Virus record (IMG/VR): IMGVR_UViG_3300037479_000620
Coordinates: 1-41,607 of that record
Length of the DNA: 41,607 nucleotides
Source: a virus
Lineage: Duplodnaviria; Caudoviricetes
Direction: 5' to 3' (one strand)
Part shown: positions 1-38,762 of the stretch, piece after piece
Layout of the letters: each line of letters starts with the position of its first letter
How positions within the stretch are numbered: position 1 is the stretch's first letter
Notes under the pieces: model-generated
What the model was told of the DNA's origin: nothing
The model's database searches: none
The model's input: the letters and a program-made list of their open reading frames with translations, nothing else
Program-made: the position numbers and the translations under genes

Positions 1-360
1 ATGGTGCCCACTGACTCACTCAAAAAAGCGGCCCTCCGCCGCTCACGAAACGACCCGCCGGCCTCGGATTGGCATCCGGCGGACGTCAAGGCCGCGCTCG
101 AGAAAGCGGGCTGGACGCTCCGTCGCCTAGCCAAGGATATCGGCTACCACGACCACAGCGCGCTCGCCCGCGCTCTCTATCAGGCCGCTCCGGTCGCCGA
201 GCGAATTATCGCTCAGGTCCTGAAGAAGGCGCCGAAAGAAATCTGGCCGAGCCGCTACGACCACGCCGGCCGCCCCAAGGGGCGAATCCGGCCCGACCGC
301 GATCCTCTGACTATCACGCGCCAGCGGCTCGGTCATGTCCTCAATGGAGGCGCGGTCTAG
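1..360 (+). CDS. ner: Ner/Nlp-family DNA-binding regulator
   Basis: DWHPADVKAALEKAGWTLRRLA...AERIIAQVL...EIWPSRY is the Ner signature; lies upstream of the transposase. Confidence 0.9.
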   Translation: MVPTDSLKKAALRRSRNDPPASDWHPADVKAALEKAGWTLRRLAKDIGYHDHSALARALYQAAPVAERIIAQVLKKAPKEIWPSRYDHAGRPKGRIRPDRDPLTITRQRLGHVLNGGAV

Positions 361-7782: not shown

Positions 7783-8405
7783 AACCTGTTCAGCTCGACC
7801 TGCTCGACGCACCGCAGGGCCGTGCTTCTGGAGAGCCGCGCCACGGGCGCGGTTCTCCCCAAAGCTCGCCGGCTTCGGCGAGCGTCCGCCACTGCAAGAT
7901 CTGCGGCCTCTGCGATCCGCTGCCCGAGGGCGTGAGCTGGGCCACGAACACCCGCTGCAGCAATTGCGTCGGTGGCGCAGGCGCCACCTTAGGGCGAAGC
8001 GAAGCTTCGCCAGAAGCGAGCCCCTTGGCGAGCGTCGCGCGCGCCGCTTACCAGACGGAGCCGTGCCCGGTGAAGGGCTGCCGCGGCTGGCATCATCCGC
8101 TGGCGACGATGTGCGACGCGTGCAAGACGCTGCTGCCCGAGGAGCTGCGCCTCGCGCTGATGCGCGCCGCGAGCATGGAGCGCCGGCCGCAGCTCGCCGA
8201 GCGATACGGCCCGCTCGATCGGCCGGCGCTGCAGAAGCAGGCGATCGAGGCCGCGTCGGCCCGCAGGAGCGGGCCTTCTGGCGAAGCGAAGCTTCGCCCC
8301 GAAGCTCGCCCCTCGGCGAGCGACCGCGTTTCACGTGCAACAGGGCCGGTCGCGCCGCCGGCGCGACCTTCGGGAGAATCGGGGCACGGCCCCGGTTCTC
8401 CATGA
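7779..8405 (+). CDS. Cys-rich (zinc-ribbon-like) hypothetical protein carrying four in-frame repeat elements
   Basis: CKICGLC...CSNC and CPVKGC...CDAC motifs separated by repeat-encoded low-complexity segments. Confidence 0.6.
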   Translation: MKPVQLDLLDAPQGRASGEPRHGRGSPQSSPASASVRHCKICGLCDPLPEGVSWATNTRCSNCVGGAGATLGRSEASPEASPLASVARAAYQTEPCPVKGCRGWHHPLATMCDACKTLLPEELRLALMRAASMERRPQLAERYGPLDRPALQKQAIEAASARRSGPSGEAKLRPEARPSASDRVSRATGPVAPPARPSGESGHGPGSP

Positions 8406-9355: not shown

Positions 9356-10606
9356 ATGCGCGCGCCGCTCACCCAGCGCAAAGCCGCGTCGGCCGCGCAA
9401 GCGCGGCCTTCTGGCGAAGCGCAAGAGCTTCGCCCCATCGCCCCGGTGTCGCTCGCCGCGGGGCCGACGTCGCCGGCGATCGTCCCGGCCGAGCTCGCGG
9501 GGCAGACAACGCCGCGCATCGAGTGGGTGGCGCCTCGGTCGCTCTTCGTCGAGGAAGGGTATCAGCGCCAGCTGAGCCGGAACTCGCTGACGCTAATCCG
9601 CAAGATCGTCGCCGGCTGGAACTGGGCGCACGTGAAGCCGCCTATCGTCGCGAGAGCGACGATTCAGGAGAATGCGGCCAAGGGGCCGCATTCTCCCAAA
9701 CAAAGTAGCGTTGAGCGCTACTTTGTAATCGACGGCCAGCACACGGCGATCGCGGCCGTCACGCACGGGGGCATCGACAAACTTCCGGTCATCGTCGTGG
9801 AGCCCGGCGCCCTCGATCGGCGCGCCGCCGCGTTCATCGCCCACAATCGCGACCGGCTCCACCTCACGCCGATGCAGATGCACTACGCGGCGCTCGCCGC
9901 CGGCGACGAGTCATCGCGCGCGATCAATGCCGCGTGCCTGCTCGCCGGCGCCCACATTTGCCGCGTGCAGCCGGCGGAGTGGAAGCCGGGCGACACCGTC
10001 GCGGTAGCCTCGATCGCTGCGCTCGTGAAGGCTGCCGGCGTCGAGGGCGCCGCCGAGGTTCTGAAGATCCTCGTCGATGCGGGCCGCGCGCCGATCGTGA
10101 TGAACGAGATCAAGGCGGTCGCGACGTTGCTGCACGACCGGGCCCGCCCCTGCGATGCGAAGGCGCTGGCCGCGGTTGTGGGCTCGGACAAGCGCGAGGT
10201 GTGGGCGCGGCTCGCCCTCTCGATCGCCTCGGAGCGGAACGTTCACGTGTGGCGCGCGCTCGCGGATCTCTGGCGGTCGCAGTTGAATGGCGAAGCGGTG
10301 CCGCCGCGCGCGGCCGCGCCGTCAAAGCCCGCGGCCATCGTCGACGCGCCGCGCGGCGGAGCGGCCATTGGGGGGGCTGTCGCCAAGGCCCCGCGGCGCC
10401 CGGTAAACACCGAGCCCGCGGCCCCGCCGCGCGTGCCGCGTGTCGAGAAAGAGATCCTCGACGCGCTTGCGAATGGCCCGGTCGGGTTCGACGCGCTGGT
10501 CCGCCGCACTGCCTATCCGAGCAACGCCGTGCGCAAGGCGCTCGCCGCGCTGCTTTGGGCCGGGCAGATCGCGCGCACGGGCGAGCTCTATAGGAGGCGC
10601 GCATGA
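9356..10606 (+). CDS. ParB/Srx-like N-terminal domain protein with possible C-terminal winged HTH
   Basis: LFVEEGYQRQLS...PPIVA...YFVIDGQHT; C-terminal EILDALANGPVGFDALV...AVRKALAAL. Confidence 0.8.
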   Translation: MRAPLTQRKAASAAQARPSGEAQELRPIAPVSLAAGPTSPAIVPAELAGQTTPRIEWVAPRSLFVEEGYQRQLSRNSLTLIRKIVAGWNWAHVKPPIVARATIQENAAKGPHSPKQSSVERYFVIDGQHTAIAAVTHGGIDKLPVIVVEPGALDRRAAAFIAHNRDRLHLTPMQMHYAALAAGDESSRAINAACLLAGAHICRVQPAEWKPGDTVAVASIAALVKAAGVEGAAEVLKILVDAGRAPIVMNEIKAVATLLHDRARPCDAKALAAVVGSDKREVWARLALSIASERNVHVWRALADLWRSQLNGEAVPPRAAAPSKPAAIVDAPRGGAAIGGAVAKAPRRPVNTEPAAPPRVPRVEKEILDALANGPVGFDALVRRTAYPSNAVRKALAALLWAGQIARTGELYRRRA

Positions 10607-10956
10607 TCACCGCCGAGCTCCTCGAACGGCACCGGCTCACGCTCGACGGCGACGGTCGCGCAAGCGCGACCTCGCGGGGCGAAGCGAAGCTTCGCCAAAA
10701 GATCATCCAAGGTGAGCGCGCCATGACGACCGCAGAATTGCTCGAGCGCTTCCGGCTCACCTTGGATGATCTCATCAAGGCCGCGCGGCGCGAAGCGGCG
10801 CTGCGCAAGAACAGCGCCGACAAGTTCGTCCAGTCGGGCAAATGGAAGCCCGAAGAGGCGCGCCTGCGCGTCGCCGAGATGGAGGCGATCGCCGGCGTGC
10901 TCGAGAACCTGAAGCTCGGCCAGACCTACACTCAAGCGATGGAGCAGAGCAGATGA
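10603..10956 (+). CDS. Hypothetical protein with duplicated N-terminus
   Basis: MITAELLERHRLTLD and MTTAELLERFRLTLD; SD AGGAGG. Confidence 0.65.
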   Translation: MITAELLERHRLTLDGDGRASATSRGEAKLRQKIIQGERAMTTAELLERFRLTLDDLIKAARREAALRKNSADKFVQSGKWKPEEARLRVAEMEAIAGVLENLKLGQTYTQAMEQSR

Positions 10957-10994
10957 TTGTTGTCGCGGCCCCTTGGGCGCGGGGATCGACGGCC

Positions 10995-11023
10995 TTGATT
11001 CCGGCTACGCTCAGGCGCATCCT
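10995..11023 (+). promoter_or_regulatory. Predicted sigma70-type promoter of the C4/RAMP module
   Basis: TTGATT (10995-11000), 17-bp spacer, CATCCT (11018-11023). Confidence 0.45.
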
Positions 11024-11098
11024 GTGCGCGGGTCTGAACAACCCGCAAACGGCGCCAGGCGCCCGCGTTAGAAGGCGCTCTTTCTATGCCTACGGCCT

Positions 11099-11184
11099 GA
11101 GGCCGGGGTCCCGATGCGTATGTCCAGGGCGCAAGCCTAAAGGCATCGGGGGCCGTCCGTTTGCGGCTGTTCAGCCCCGGCTTC
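11099..11184 (+). ncRNA. C4-like antisense RNA (phage P1 C4 / P4 CI type)
   Basis: Closing stem GAGGCCGGGG/CCCCGGCTTC; arm CCCGATGC/GCATCGGG with GCAA loop; loop CCGTTTG and junction TGTTCAG are complementary to CAAACGG and CTGAAC sites both upstream (11034-11052) and downstream (11191-11230). Confidence 0.8.
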
Positions 11185-11240
11185 GTCGCCCTGAACCGGC
11201 GACGGCGTTGCCACTGAACCAATCAAACGGAGTTTTCCCA

Positions 11241-11475
11241 ATGTCTCTCGCTTTCGTGCCCGACGAATGGGGCATCGCCGCTCAACGACGCCCGCTGCGT
11301 CCTGTCGTTTTTGCGCACGGCCATCGCCTGCCGCAAGCCCGGCGACTCCATCGACCTCAGCGACGACGACAGTCACGGCCTCAGTGTCATCCTGGGAGCC
11401 GTCGAACGACTTTGCGAATCGGCCGCCAACGAGAGGCGCATCGAAGCCACCCGCGAAAAGGAGCAGCCCGCATGA
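11241..11475 (+). pseudogene. Small ORF (~77 aa) apparently interrupted by a +1 frameshift
   Basis: ATG 11241 has SD GGAG; the +1 frame encodes ASPLNDARCVLSFLRTAI...GLSVILGAVERLC and stops in an ATGA overlap with the next gene; removing one G from GGGG 11269-11272 joins them. Confidence 0.5.
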
Positions 11476-12089
11476 ACGAGATTCCGTCGAAGGCCCATAT
11501 CGGCGAAGCCACAAACGGCGCCGCCGAGACGATCGAATTCTCCGAACCCTACGTCGCCGAGGTGACGATTCAGGGGGTCGCCGATCTCCTCTTTCACCGC
11601 TGGAATTCCGACGCGGTCGCGGCGAAGGCCGCGGCGGCCAAGGGCAGTAGGGCGAAGAAAAGCGACGCGGTCGGAACCTATGTGTGGCGCGACGATCGCG
11701 GCATGCTCTGCCTCCCGGGCGAGTATGTGCGGGGCGCCATCGTCGCCGCGGCGAAATTCCGGCAGGACCCGCGCTCGCCGCGCAAGTCGGCGGCGGATCT
11801 CTACAAGGCCGGCGTCGTCGCCCTCACCAATCTCGCGAGTCTCGGCTCGAAAGATTGGGATTATGAAGACCGCCGCCGCGTGATGGTGCAGCGCCAGGGC
11901 ATCACGCGCGTGCGCCCGGCGATGCGCGAGGGGTGGAGGGCCACGTTGCTGCTCCAGGTGAATCTGCCGGAGTACATCCCGCCGCAGTCGCTCAACGAGA
12001 CGATCGCCGCCGCCGGCCGCCTCGTCGGCGTCGGCGATTTCCGCCCGACCTTCGGGCGGTTCTGCATCACCAAGTTTGAGCTTCGGTGA
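11472..12089 (+). CDS. Stand-alone RAMP/Cas7-like protein (205 aa)
   Basis: N-terminal strand VTIQGVADLLFH, LCLPGEYVRGAIVAAA (cf. RAMP IPGSSxKGAxR), C-terminal Gly-rich loop AGRLVGVGDFRPTFGRF; SD AAGGAG. Confidence 0.75.
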   Translation: MNEIPSKAHIGEATNGAAETIEFSEPYVAEVTIQGVADLLFHRWNSDAVAAKAAAAKGSRAKKSDAVGTYVWRDDRGMLCLPGEYVRGAIVAAAKFRQDPRSPRKSAADLYKAGVVALTNLASLGSKDWDYEDRRRVMVQRQGITRVRPAMREGWRATLLLQVNLPEYIPPQSLNETIAAAGRLVGVGDFRPTFGRFCITKFELR

Positions 12090-12098
12090 TGACGATCA

Positions 12099-12251
12099 CG
12101 CAGGGCCAAGCGCGGCGTGGCGGGGCGTGCCAGGCCAAGGTCGGGCGGGGCGCGGTCTGGCGTCAGGGCGTGGCTTGGCCGGGTTGGGCGCGGCAGCGCA
12201 GGGCCAGGCAGGCTTCGCCCGGGCCAGGTAGGGCGCCGTGCGGCATGGCAT
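12099..12251 (+). repeat. Phased pentamer array GGY-NN, 30 units in two blocks (candidate guide RNA)
   Basis: 13 units at 12099-12163, 3-nt CAG offset, 17 units at 12167-12251; 22/30 units begin GGY and 30/30 have a pyrimidine at position 3. Confidence 0.85.
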
Positions 12252-12253
12252 GG

Positions 12254-12277
12254 GGCGGGGCGCGCAAGCGCCCCGCC
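12254..12277 (+). terminator. Perfect 10-bp hairpin with GCAA tetraloop closing the array
   Basis: GGCGGGGCGC-GCAA-GCGCCCCGCC followed by ATTCTC. Confidence 0.6.
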
Positions 12278-12285
12278 ATTCTCAT

Positions 12286-13089
12286 GTGACCGGCGCCGTG
12301 CGATCCGACCCGCAACGCCGCCGCGAGTTGGCGGCAATCCACGTCGCGCGCAAGCGGCTCGGGCTCGACGAGGACAGCTACCGCGAATTCCTCGCCGGCC
12401 TCACCGGCAAGCGCAGCGCTGCCGAGCTCGACGCAGCCGAGCGCCAGCGGGTGATCGAGGCCTTTCGCTCGCCTAACGGCCGGCACTTCGTATGGCATGA
12501 ACGCCGCGAGCATCGTTTGATTGCGAGCCTTTGGAAAAATCTTTATCTGCTCGGCGAAGTCGAGGAGCCGGGCCCGCGCGCGCTCGACAATTTCGTGCAG
12601 CGCCAGGCCGGCGTGGCGGCGCTGAAGTGGCTCGCGCCCGAGGCCGCGGCCAGCGTCGTGCAGGCGCTCAAGGACTGGCTCGCGCGCGCAGGATTCGAGT
12701 TGCCGTCGACGACGCGCCGTCGGGCGGCGCTTACGGGCGAAGCCAAGGCTTCGCCACAAGCTCGCGGCGAACGCGAGAGCGTTCGCGCGGACGTCAAGAA
12801 GCTGGCGCTCACGCGCCTGGTCAAGGCGCAATGGGCGCGCCTCGAGGCGCTGGGCGCGCTCACCTTCAAGAACGACTATCACCGCCGCTGCGCGCTCGAT
12901 GCGTATTTCGACAATGGCGTGGCGAGCTGCAAGAAGGGCGTCGACCACCCGATGGCGACGCCGGCCGAGCTCGACCAATGCGCCGAGCTGCTCGGCGCGT
13001 GGATTCGGTCGGTCCGCCAGAGCGGACCTTCCGGCGATCCGGCGCCTTCCGCCGGATCGCCCGTAAGCTCACGGCGGTCTCCGCCGTGA
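12286..13089 (+). CDS. gemA: GemA (Mu gp16-like) regulatory protein; start uncertain
   Basis: ELAAIHVARKRLGLDEDSYREFLAGLTGKRSAAEL...ALDNFVQRQAGVAALKWL...VVQALKDWLAR. Confidence 0.88.
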   Translation: MTGAVRSDPQRRRELAAIHVARKRLGLDEDSYREFLAGLTGKRSAAELDAAERQRVIEAFRSPNGRHFVWHERREHRLIASLWKNLYLLGEVEEPGPRALDNFVQRQAGVAALKWLAPEAAASVVQALKDWLARAGFELPSTTRRRAALTGEAKASPQARGERESVRADVKKLALTRLVKAQWARLEALGALTFKNDYHRRCALDAYFDNGVASCKKGVDHPMATPAELDQCAELLGAWIRSVRQSGPSGDPAPSAGSPVSSRRSPP

Positions 13090-13511
13090 GCGTCAGCGAG
13101 CGGCTGCCCGAGCTGCTCGAGGAGATCGCCGGGCGCTTCGGCGAGGGCGTGATGCTGCGCCTCGCCGGCGACTTCGGCGGCACGCGCATCTACGTGCCCG
13201 CGCCGAAGTCGATCGGCCCCGATCACGTGCTCGCGCGCTCGCTCGGTCTCGCGGCGGCGCGCGGGGTGGCGGAGCGCTACGGGCCCGGCCACGTGGAGAT
13301 CCCGCTCGGCCCCACGGCGTCGGGCCCGCGCTGCCGGCGTGCCGCTCTGCTCGCGCTCGAGGAAAACCGCTCGGTGCGCGAGGCCGCCCGCAAGGCCGGC
13401 ATGACCGAGCGCACGATCTGGCGCCTGAAGCGCCGCGCGAAGAAGCGCGCCGGGCGCGGCGCTCGCCAGGGCGATCTCTTCGGCGACGCTGGCCGGAAGG
13501 AGCCAGCTTAG
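13086..13511 (+). CDS. Mor/C-family transcription activator
   Basis: LEEIAGRFGEGVMLRLAGDFGGTRIYVP plus C-terminal HTH SVREAARKAGMTERTIWR; follows gemA. Confidence 0.8.
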   Translation: MSVSERLPELLEEIAGRFGEGVMLRLAGDFGGTRIYVPAPKSIGPDHVLARSLGLAAARGVAERYGPGHVEIPLGPTASGPRCRRAALLALEENRSVREAARKAGMTERTIWRLKRRAKKRAGRGARQGDLFGDAGRKEPA

Positions 13512-14868: not shown

Positions 14869-15381
14869 TTGATCATGCGCCGCGCCATAGTCTGCGCCGT
14901 CGTCGTCGCTGGCTTCGCCAGCTTCGGGGCGAAGCTTTGCTTCGCCACAGCACTCGTCATTTTGACGATTGCCCCCGCCGCCGCGGCCGAGAGCAGCAAC
15001 GCGCTCGATCTCCGCCCGCTGCTCACCGAGACGGTGATCCCGATCCTTTCGACGGCGCTGTTGGCGCTCGGCCTCGCGGCGATCGCCTGGCTGAGGCGCC
15101 GGCTCGGCATCGAGGACAACCGCGCGCTCGGCGAGATCGCCGATAAGGCGCTCGTTCGCGGCGTGCAGTTCGCCGAGAACGCGCTGCGCGCCGAAGTGGC
15201 CAACGGCGGGTGGGCGCAGCCCGCGATCGAGAGCGAGCTTGTGCGCCGCGCCGCCGCTTACGTGACGCAGCAGATCCCCGACACGCTGCGCCAGCTCGGC
15301 TACGACCCCGCCACGCCCGAAGGCCGCGCCGCGATCGACCGCATGATCCGGGCGCGCCTCTCGCCGCCGGCGTCACCTTAA
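14869..15381 (+). CDS. Membrane protein, holin-like
   Basis: Hydrophobic segments, VIPILSTALLALGLAAIAWLRRRLG; lysis cassette. Confidence 0.55.
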   Translation: MIMRRAIVCAVVVAGFASFGAKLCFATALVILTIAPAAAAESSNALDLRPLLTETVIPILSTALLALGLAAIAWLRRRLGIEDNRALGEIADKALVRGVQFAENALRAEVANGGWAQPAIESELVRRAAAYVTQQIPDTLRQLGYDPATPEGRAAIDRMIRARLSPPASP

Positions 15382-24500: not shown

Positions 24501-24686
24501 ATGGCCAAGCAGACCTACGAAGTTCTCTCGCCGCTGCTGCACGACGGCAAGCGCTACGAGCCCGGCAAGACCATCTCGCTCGAGGAAGACGCCGCCGCGG
24601 GCCTCGTGGCCAACGGCACGCTCGGGGCGCCGTCGGTCGCGGAGCGACCTTCTGGCGAAGCCAAGGCTTCGCCCAAGGAGAAATAA
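24501..24686 (+). CDS. Small head-associated protein
   Basis: YEVLSPLLHDGKRYEPGKTISL; follows capsid. Confidence 0.7.
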   Translation: MAKQTYEVLSPLLHDGKRYEPGKTISLEEDAAAGLVANGTLGAPSVAERPSGEAKASPKEK

Positions 24687-38277: not shown

Positions 38278-38762
38278 AGGAGAGCGATCGCGACGCCACC
38301 GACAAGAAGACGATCCGCGCCTTCGGCCGGGCGGCGCTGCTGATGGCGCTGATCGTGCTCATCCTCGCGGTCGTCGGCGTTCTCGCCGAGGCGCGCGTCG
38401 CGCGCCCGAGCGGCGAGCTTACGGGAGAAGCGCCCGTCGCTCGCCCAGAGGGCGAGCTTACGGGAGAAGCGCCCTCGGGCGCTTCTCCAATGGATGGGCA
38501 CCTTGTGCCCATCCACGGCGACGCCGGTTGGATCAACCGCGGCGGCTATCGCAACGAACGGGGCGATCACTGCTGCGGCAAGGACGACTGCTTCGCGATC
38601 CCGCCCGAGCACGTGGGCGAAACCAGCGAGGGCTATCACCTGCACTTCCACGGGCTCGTCGTGCCGCACCGACAGGCCCAGAACAGCGAGGACGGGCGCT
38701 ATTGGGCCTGCTGGTCGGGCCCGCGGCTGCGCTGCTTCTTTCGCCCGCATCGGGGCTTCTGA
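38274..38762 (+). CDS. Membrane-anchored/secreted Cys-rich protein
   Basis: TM segment then CCGKDDC...SEDGRYWAC...RCFF. Confidence 0.65.
   Translation: MKESDRDATDKKTIRAFGRAALLMALIVLILAVVGVLAEARVARPSGELTGEAPVARPEGELTGEAPSGASPMDGHLVPIHGDAGWINRGGYRNERGDHCCGKDDCFAIPPEHVGETSEGYHLHFHGLVVPHRQAQNSEDGRYWACWSGPRLRCFFRPHRGF

Follow-up and report, generated by a model that had tools for sequence, protein, structure and literature searches.

Within a single virus record of 41,607 bases, referred to here as the window (i.e., the whole stretch of DNA that was analyzed), a long run of five-base units, in which a GGY motif alternates with a variable dinucleotide (NN), precedes a gemA gene. The question raised by this locus is whether the variable dinucleotides spell a target and, if so, in whose genome that target resides. 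The features upon which the analysis draws are as follows, in order of position.

10953 to 11475, + strand: open reading frame (ORF) of 173 aa, with an ATGA overlap with vipr; missing from the syntenic sister phage; candidate accessory gene
11472 to 12089, + strand: predicted vipr gene, 205 aa, RAMP fold, with a thumb region and a C-terminal glycine-rich loop
12099 to 12163, + strand: block 1 of the putative vrRNA array, 13 GGY/NN five-base units; target searches negative
12164 to 12166, + strand: CAG phase break, readable as a unit without its GG
12167 to 12191, + strand: block 2, units 1 to 5; 3 of 10 bases agree with the gemA site
12192 to 12251, + strand: block 2, units 6 to 17, predicted guide segment; 23 of 24 NN bases match sister-phage gemA with a 1-nt skip
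12254 to 12277, + strand: hairpin of 10 bp with a GCAA loop; possible terminator or 3' tail of the vrRNA
12286 to 13089, + strand: the phage's own gemA (Pfam GemA, E 1.5e-24)
12517 to 12552, + strand: homolog of the target site in the phage's own gemA, codons 78 to 89; 17 of 24 bases match; 266 bases downstream of the array
13086 to 13511, + strand: activator gene of the mor type, which overlaps the stop codon of gemA (Pfam Mor, E 6.9e-8)

The phased array and its adjoining Vipr homolog

The NN strings and the coordinates of both blocks (block 2 comprising 17 five-base units at 12167-12251 on the + strand), as given in a preliminary description of this DNA, were reproduced exactly from the sequence, and the pyrimidine which it reported at position 3 is indeed constant, being present in 30 of the 30 units. 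Canonical GGY is retained by 22 of these units, the other eight beginning with CGC, AGC, GCC, GCC, CGC, GCT, GCC, and CGT. The array is genuine and above chance, its best phased run containing 13 GGY in 17 slots; elsewhere in the window, whichever the strand, at most 6 occur, and 30 sequences simulated with a second-order Markov model of the window gave 5 to 7. Tandem Repeats Finder detects just a 20-base piece of it, and the array is, therefore, not a homogeneous microsatellite, in agreement with the earlier view that it does not look like the product of slippage. Among the 30 units, 12 different NN dinucleotides occur. The preliminary description mentions neither the adjoining Vipr gene nor the 3' hairpin. 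The array is identical across two DNA runs which are possible sources of the record.

Beginning 10 bases after the vipr stop codon, the array constitutes an intergenic tandem YNNGG repeat, whose 30 units exceed the minimum of 4 given for VIPR systems. Successive vrRNAs of staggered VIPR arrays are offset by 1 nt, whereas the break here is of 3 nt, and among 33 short phase breaks in homologous loci, 24 are of 1 nt and none is of 3 nt. The CAG break is thus atypical and may represent a unit that lost its GG. The 3' end of the array leads into a predicted structure, the fold of 12244-12290 having an energy of -30.9 kcal/mol (z -4.66), a value reached by 0 of 200 shuffles; the hairpin produced no Rfam match above threshold, and no sigma-70 promoter match was found within 10800-12600.

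Although the 205-aa product of the ORF at 11472-12089 has no Pfam match, phmmer relates it to the SUSP1 Vipr (PDB 36PP; E 4.9e-4), as does a 115-sequence profile (E 3.3e-10, with the next match at E 0.86). Its predicted structure (pLDDT 87.8) best matches Csm/Cas7-type RAMP chains, Foldseek returning Class 1 CRISPR RAMP chains at an E value of about 5e-7 and a TM score of about 0.5 from a structure library that ends in April 2026. Similarity to the SUSP1 protein is restricted to residues 71 to 200, placing the present protein in a distant Vipr clade. Residues R138, D177, and R179 of the SUSP1 Vipr align to R148, D189, and R191, which are invariant across the 115-sequence alignment; the main text describing the SUSP1 system reports that loss of R138 or D177 abolishes silencing (10.64898/2026.04.26.720927). 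Vipr relatives accounted for 6468 of 8000 scored candidates, and a phased GGY block of at least 6 canonical units was present at 79 of 82 viral loci encoding Vipr homologs (the best 80 of 326, plus 2 from a separate search).

With its Vipr homology and GGY/NN array, the locus agrees with the sequence-level definition of VIPR (10.64898/2026.04.26.720920) and is almost certainly a member of this system, and by the same sequence features it is a new member of a system described in 2026. The 173-aa ORF upstream has no Pfam, PHROG, or Atlas match, and no vap gene of the seven VIPR types was recognized, nor did this ORF or vipr match a nuclease family in Pfam or PHROGs. The sequence style of the 173-aa product (10953-11475) is, in our assumption, reminiscent of Ash/Icd-like phage proteins.

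The window encodes Pfam families typical of the Mu group, namely Mu transposase, MuB, Gam, GemA, and Mor, in addition to portal and tail proteins, and by this gene content the carrier is a Mu-like phage, with its genes on both sides of the VIPR locus. No CRISPR repeat array or cas operon was found in the window (Tandem Repeats Finder; Pfam on 27 ORFs), and the locus accordingly has, in sequence terms, the minimal non-CRISPR form in a phage by which VIPR is delimited. The record opens with the start codon (ATG) of a gene for a Ner-like repressor (window 1-360); since neither a c-repressor nor a left end was observed in it, it probably represents a trimmed form of the phage. A contig of 78,690 bases encodes an identical GemA, suggestive of a prophage with host flanks. 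GemA homologs, at approximately 30 to 45% identity, occur in 7 of 237 genomes of the Stellaceae.

Several repeats were observed incidentally. Of all the repeats that Tandem Repeats Finder scored in this DNA, the highest is a 39-base tandem repeat of 2.4 copies at 38391-38482. A short palindromic element is found exactly twice (12737-12754 and 24655-24672) and five times at up to 2 mismatches, a number equaled by 6 of 100 shuffles. In addition, a 40- to 60-base stretch of the sister contig L028, described below, aligns at approximately 7975-8011, 8253-8309, 9386-9436, 10644-10696, and 14898-14946, in some cases inside reading frames; together with the palindrome, these stretches possibly represent a dispersed in-frame repeat.

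Decoding of block 2 against the gemA of sister phages

In the VIPR code, one target base, usually the wobble base, is skipped between successive NN dinucleotides (10.64898/2026.04.26.720920). Read antisense with such a 1-nt skip, block 2 yields a peptide pattern which resembles the phage's own GemA. GemA relatives, fetched with the phage's own GemA as the query and hence independently of the guide, fit the decoded codons at 11 of 12 positions in three of the six closest cases, at 10 of 12 in two, and at 7 of 12 in one, the last also being the fit of the phage's own protein. Among 191 GemA homologs, 136 aligned gap-free over the site, of which 5 can reach 22 to 23 of the 24 bases and the rest at most 18.

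When the metagenome collection was scanned for units 6 to 16 (22 fixed bases), two exact matches were obtained, L027 and L028, both of which lie in frame in gemA, with the skipped base at codon position 3 and an agreement of 23 of 24 bases once unit 17 is included; one of the two encodes P0122. Agreement of the L027 and L028 genes with units 1 to 5 falls to the 3 of 10 bases listed above. A 22-base pattern is expected at random about 0.01 to 0.02 times per 1e11 bases, a figure that applies to a pattern chosen here after inspection of the GemA proteins. Collection scans employed the 1-nt skip; on L027 and L028 themselves, 0 of 2000 shuffles matched as well and skips of 0, 2, and 3 nt were also compared, controls which are circular since both loci had been selected by the pattern. 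The non-circular support consists of the test on GemA proteins and of the fact that both metagenome matches proved to be gemA genes. Taken together, the gemA of sister phages is very probably the target of block 2 units 6 to 17, and a vrRNA derived from these units is predicted to pair with the gemA coding strand. Filaments of 11 to 12 subunits, assembled 3' to 5' and resolving from the 3' end, are described in the main text of 10.64898/2026.04.26.720927, and a 12-unit, 3'-anchored match fits this mode of assembly. The preliminary suggestion that the NN positions spell a gapped target is, in consequence, supported for 12 of the 30 units, read with a 1-nt gap on sister gemA, and does not extend to the other 18.

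Two target DNAs were recovered, on contigs of 1.1 and 1.7 kb. L028 aligns to window positions 10843-10956 at 93% and 12313-13310 at 76%; between these segments, it has approximately 530 bases of other ORFs in place of the approximately 1,360 bases of the carrier, in which vipr lies between the 173-aa ORF and the array. L028 is, by this alignment, a syntenic sister without the VIPR cassette at this position, and neither the L027 nor the L028 contig contains a GGY block, an absence which, because the contigs are short, holds for this position only. Searches for sister phages gave 13 loci in the viral collection, all of them distant (best E 1e-24), and none in GTDB, while among the listed contigs of the two DNA runs none spans an L028-type target site, which does not imply its absence from those runs.

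Searches of the window, of the viral collection, of GTDB, and of the 237 genomes of the alphaproteobacterial family named above gave no target above chance for block 1 or for units 1 to 5 of block 2. Within the window, seven unit sets searched at four skips produced nothing clearly beyond 200 shuffles, the closest self-target being block 1 at skip 0 (19/26, equaled by 11 of 200 shuffles). Among viral contigs, 4 matches were obtained with block 1 units 1 to 8, 13 with units 6 to 13 (best 20/26), and 0 with units 4 to 12. Block 1 gave 13 matches in the 237 Stellaceae genomes compared to 29 for a reversed-pattern control, and at best 19/26 in 121 fetched loci, the same as shuffles. Units 5 to 13 had 8 matches in GTDB genomes, the best of which (22/26, in a Stellaceae genome) was rejected as chance, its skip lying off the wobble base; the gene that holds it is presumably ftsZ-like. 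A guide read across the CAG break was likewise discarded, its 8 seed matches agreeing at only 4 to 9 of 24 bases outside the seed.

A 16-base seed of block 2 matched viral contigs 24 times, none of these matches being in gemA and the best reaching 24/34. The 237 genomes contain 3 sites at 21/24 for block 2, all in one genome, compared to 0 for the control; two of these lie in methyltransferase-like paralogs, and the sites in this single Stellaceae genome were treated as probable chance. The negative results for block 1 and units 1 to 5 are weak, as the scans need exact seeds and the metagenome scan covered block 2 alone. Block 1 probably represents another guide, or an older one, with a target outside the searched collections. 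The reading of the two blocks as two guides, or of the break as a processing boundary, did not find confirmation: the gemA match begins five units past the CAG, and nothing beyond chance was matched by block 1. Because the boundary of the match misses the break, that reading is unproven.

In an all-against-all test of 186 blocks from homologous loci, 13 matches of at least 20/22 were obtained compared to 0 to 1 in five shuffles, the 13 including duplicates and the two selected matches of the present window. One 60-unit array beside another vipr gene (L058:3119-3418) contains a 12-unit segment which matches the part of vipr that encodes the thumb in other loci (L037, L072, and L073), with 22/24 in L037 and a lower 18/24 in its own vipr. 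Single phased tracts of 53 to 113 units adjoin the Vipr homologs of L058, L077, L079, and L106, far exceeding the 9 to 16 units given for vrRNAs.

The carrier's own gemA allele

Relative to its sisters, the carrier has four amino acid changes at the homologous site, A81S, R84K, D85N, and W87Y, all of which are conservative. Its remaining 17/24 match, although the best 1-skip site in the window for units 6 to 17, is no better than what 54 of 200 shuffles attain. The lowest GC content of any 36-mer in the 41.6-kb window is found at 12516-12551 (13/36). Where the two sisters carry the same base, the differences of the carrier's gene number 7 of 24 for codon positions 1 and 2 of the site, compared to 14 of 167 outside it (p 0.007), and 5 of 9 for third positions, compared to 16 of 68 (p 0.057). 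Of the site changes, 11 of 12 run from G/C to A/T, compared to 9 of 30 elsewhere (p 0.0004). At the protein level, the divergence of the site is not significant (3/11 versus 12/142, p 0.078).

The DNA-level patterns suggest that the divergence of the carrier's gemA is probably self-escape, the likely best reading being selection for escape, whether via point mutation or via a recombined patch. It has been argued, in the main text of a study of related guides, that escape needs amino-acid-changing mutations (10.64898/2026.10.15.759431), and with four such changes in its own gemA this carrier looks to have paid that cost.

It is possible, if doubtful, that the guide is real and that the site diverged for another reason, namely, recombination with a more AT-rich gemA or escape from the guide or nuclease of another phage. 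The own site also carries silent changes at skipped bases and a silent Leu codon change, which count against escape since escape does not require them, and the nonsignificant protein-level test points the same way, as do P0125 and P0170, two close GemA relatives in which the target site has likewise diverged, but to other residues. Differences from L028 also occur in the 5' portion of the own gemA (21 of 110). Against this stand the coincidence of the AT-rich patch, the extreme of the genome, with the 36-base target; the adjacent codons 90 to 140, which differ from L028 at only 3 positions 1 and 2; and the fact that none of the 186 homologous guide blocks matches this window at 20/22 or better. 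A recombined patch could, in any case, itself have been selected by the guide. A second low-GC patch (9698-9733, 15/36) was noted inside a ParB-like gene, where no array block matches above chance.

A weak self-regulatory role, in which 17/24 pairing would dampen the carrier's own gemA-mor and tune the timing of lysis or lysogeny, appears improbable. The own site does lie downstream of the array, is transcribed in its direction, and matches the guide better than any other site in the window; however, its match is readily reached by shuffles, the sisters match better, and 17/24 is below the 80% cutoff of 10.64898/2026.04.26.720920, in which no self-targets at that level are reported. An origin of the repeat as degenerate low-complexity DNA or as a short coding sequence, with the match to gemA due to chance, is extremely improbable, for although open frames span the array (e.g., 12086-12289, 67 aa), as expected at 70% GC, a period of 5 with free NN, the adjoining Vipr, the arrays at nearly all homologous loci, and the position of 2 of 2 collection matches in sister gemA in wobble register all argue otherwise.

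Proposed mode of action and relation to known systems

In the main texts of the VIPR preprints (10.64898/2026.04.26.720920; 10.64898/2026.04.26.720927), one Vipr subunit per unit exposes the NN bases and binds double-stranded DNA, repressing transcription from either strand with no PAM. In Mu-like phages, gemA and mor are early-operon genes, and it is Mor that switches on the middle operon (PMC9936078); GemA is a hallmark protein of unknown function (PMC9239132). The explanation that best accommodates the locus, and which we consider likely, is a VIPR guide array of which 12 units are directed at sister gemA and would repress gemA-mor, with the carrier's own gemA escaping. By extension from the VIPR papers, the array would be transcribed together with vipr, and a filament would grow from the 3' tail over 11 to 12 units, with one Vipr each; the Vipr-RNA filament is predicted to bind the sister gemA site and to silence it without cutting. 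The bound filament would repress the rival's gemA and the overlapping mor, and the middle and late expression of a co-infecting or resident sister would stall, because a roadblock in gemA would be polar on mor. The carrier's own gemA would be spared through the amino acid changes at its target site.

As far as the main texts describe them, the VIPR systems of SUSP1 and of a Pseudomonas fulva prophage (type II; 10.64898/2026.04.26.720920; 10.64898/2026.04.26.720927) share with the present locus a RAMP-fold Vipr of approximately 200 aa, an adjacent GGY/NN array on the same strand, the 1-nt wobble skip, a 3' end that is structured (here by prediction), and a target in a competing phage with no self-match of at least 80%. 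They differ in producing separate 9- to 16-unit RNAs, each with a pseudoknot tail, whereas a single 30-unit tract with one 3' hairpin is found here; the present locus is further set apart by its distant Vipr clade, Mu-like carrier, 3-nt phase break, and lack of a recognized vap gene, and by its probable target, the allele that sister phages carry of the gene next to the array. The solo and native vrRNAs described in the main text of 10.64898/2026.10.15.759431 resemble the present guide in being aimed at close relatives, in that case at their VIPR loci, with a self-match below the rival match; their targets are vipr genes, vrRNAs, satellites, and REP elements, in contrast to the transposable-phage hallmark gene that is the probable target here. 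The fold is also shared with the Cas7/Csm3 backbones of Class 1 CRISPR systems, which differ in that no CRISPR repeats or cas operon were seen here and pairing is gapped.

In layout, and by analogy of layout only, the cassette recalls the free-standing homing endonucleases of T4-like phages (PMC2988022), which are likewise intergenic cassettes with a target hundreds of bases away in the neighboring gene of related phages and a possible inheritance bias in mixed infection. Here, in contrast, no nuclease was found, recognition would be by RNA, and silencing is predicted rather than a break followed by gene conversion. Tentatively, the cassette could be an RNA-guided, nuclease-free counterpart of such elements, silencing the gemA-mor of sisters that lack it and spreading, during mixed infection, together with a recoded, immune gemA; in the boldest form of this idea, the AT-biased changes at the own site, those at skipped bases among them, would be a scar of self-targeting through the Vipr R-loop.

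The skip code itself is already known, as are relative-directed guides with a lower self-match (main text of 10.64898/2026.10.15.759431). GemA does not appear in the main texts of the VIPR preprints (10.64898/2026.04.26.720920, 10.64898/2026.04.26.720927, and 10.64898/2026.10.15.759431), whose data tables may list the locus or the target class, nor in the text of an array-recovering preprint (10.64898/2026.10.21.760802) or the supplementary PDF of 10.64898/2026.04.26.720920. What the locus adds is a natural test of the code outside the phage group studied so far and with a distantly related Vipr: decoded purely from sequence, the guide falls in wobble register on a hallmark gene of sister phages. 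The locus also supplies a natural pair of alleles, one sensitive-looking and one resistant-looking, separated by four conservative amino acid differences, and this pair makes two questions testable, namely, how many NN mismatches abolish silencing and how a VIPR carrier avoids itself when aiming at its kin.
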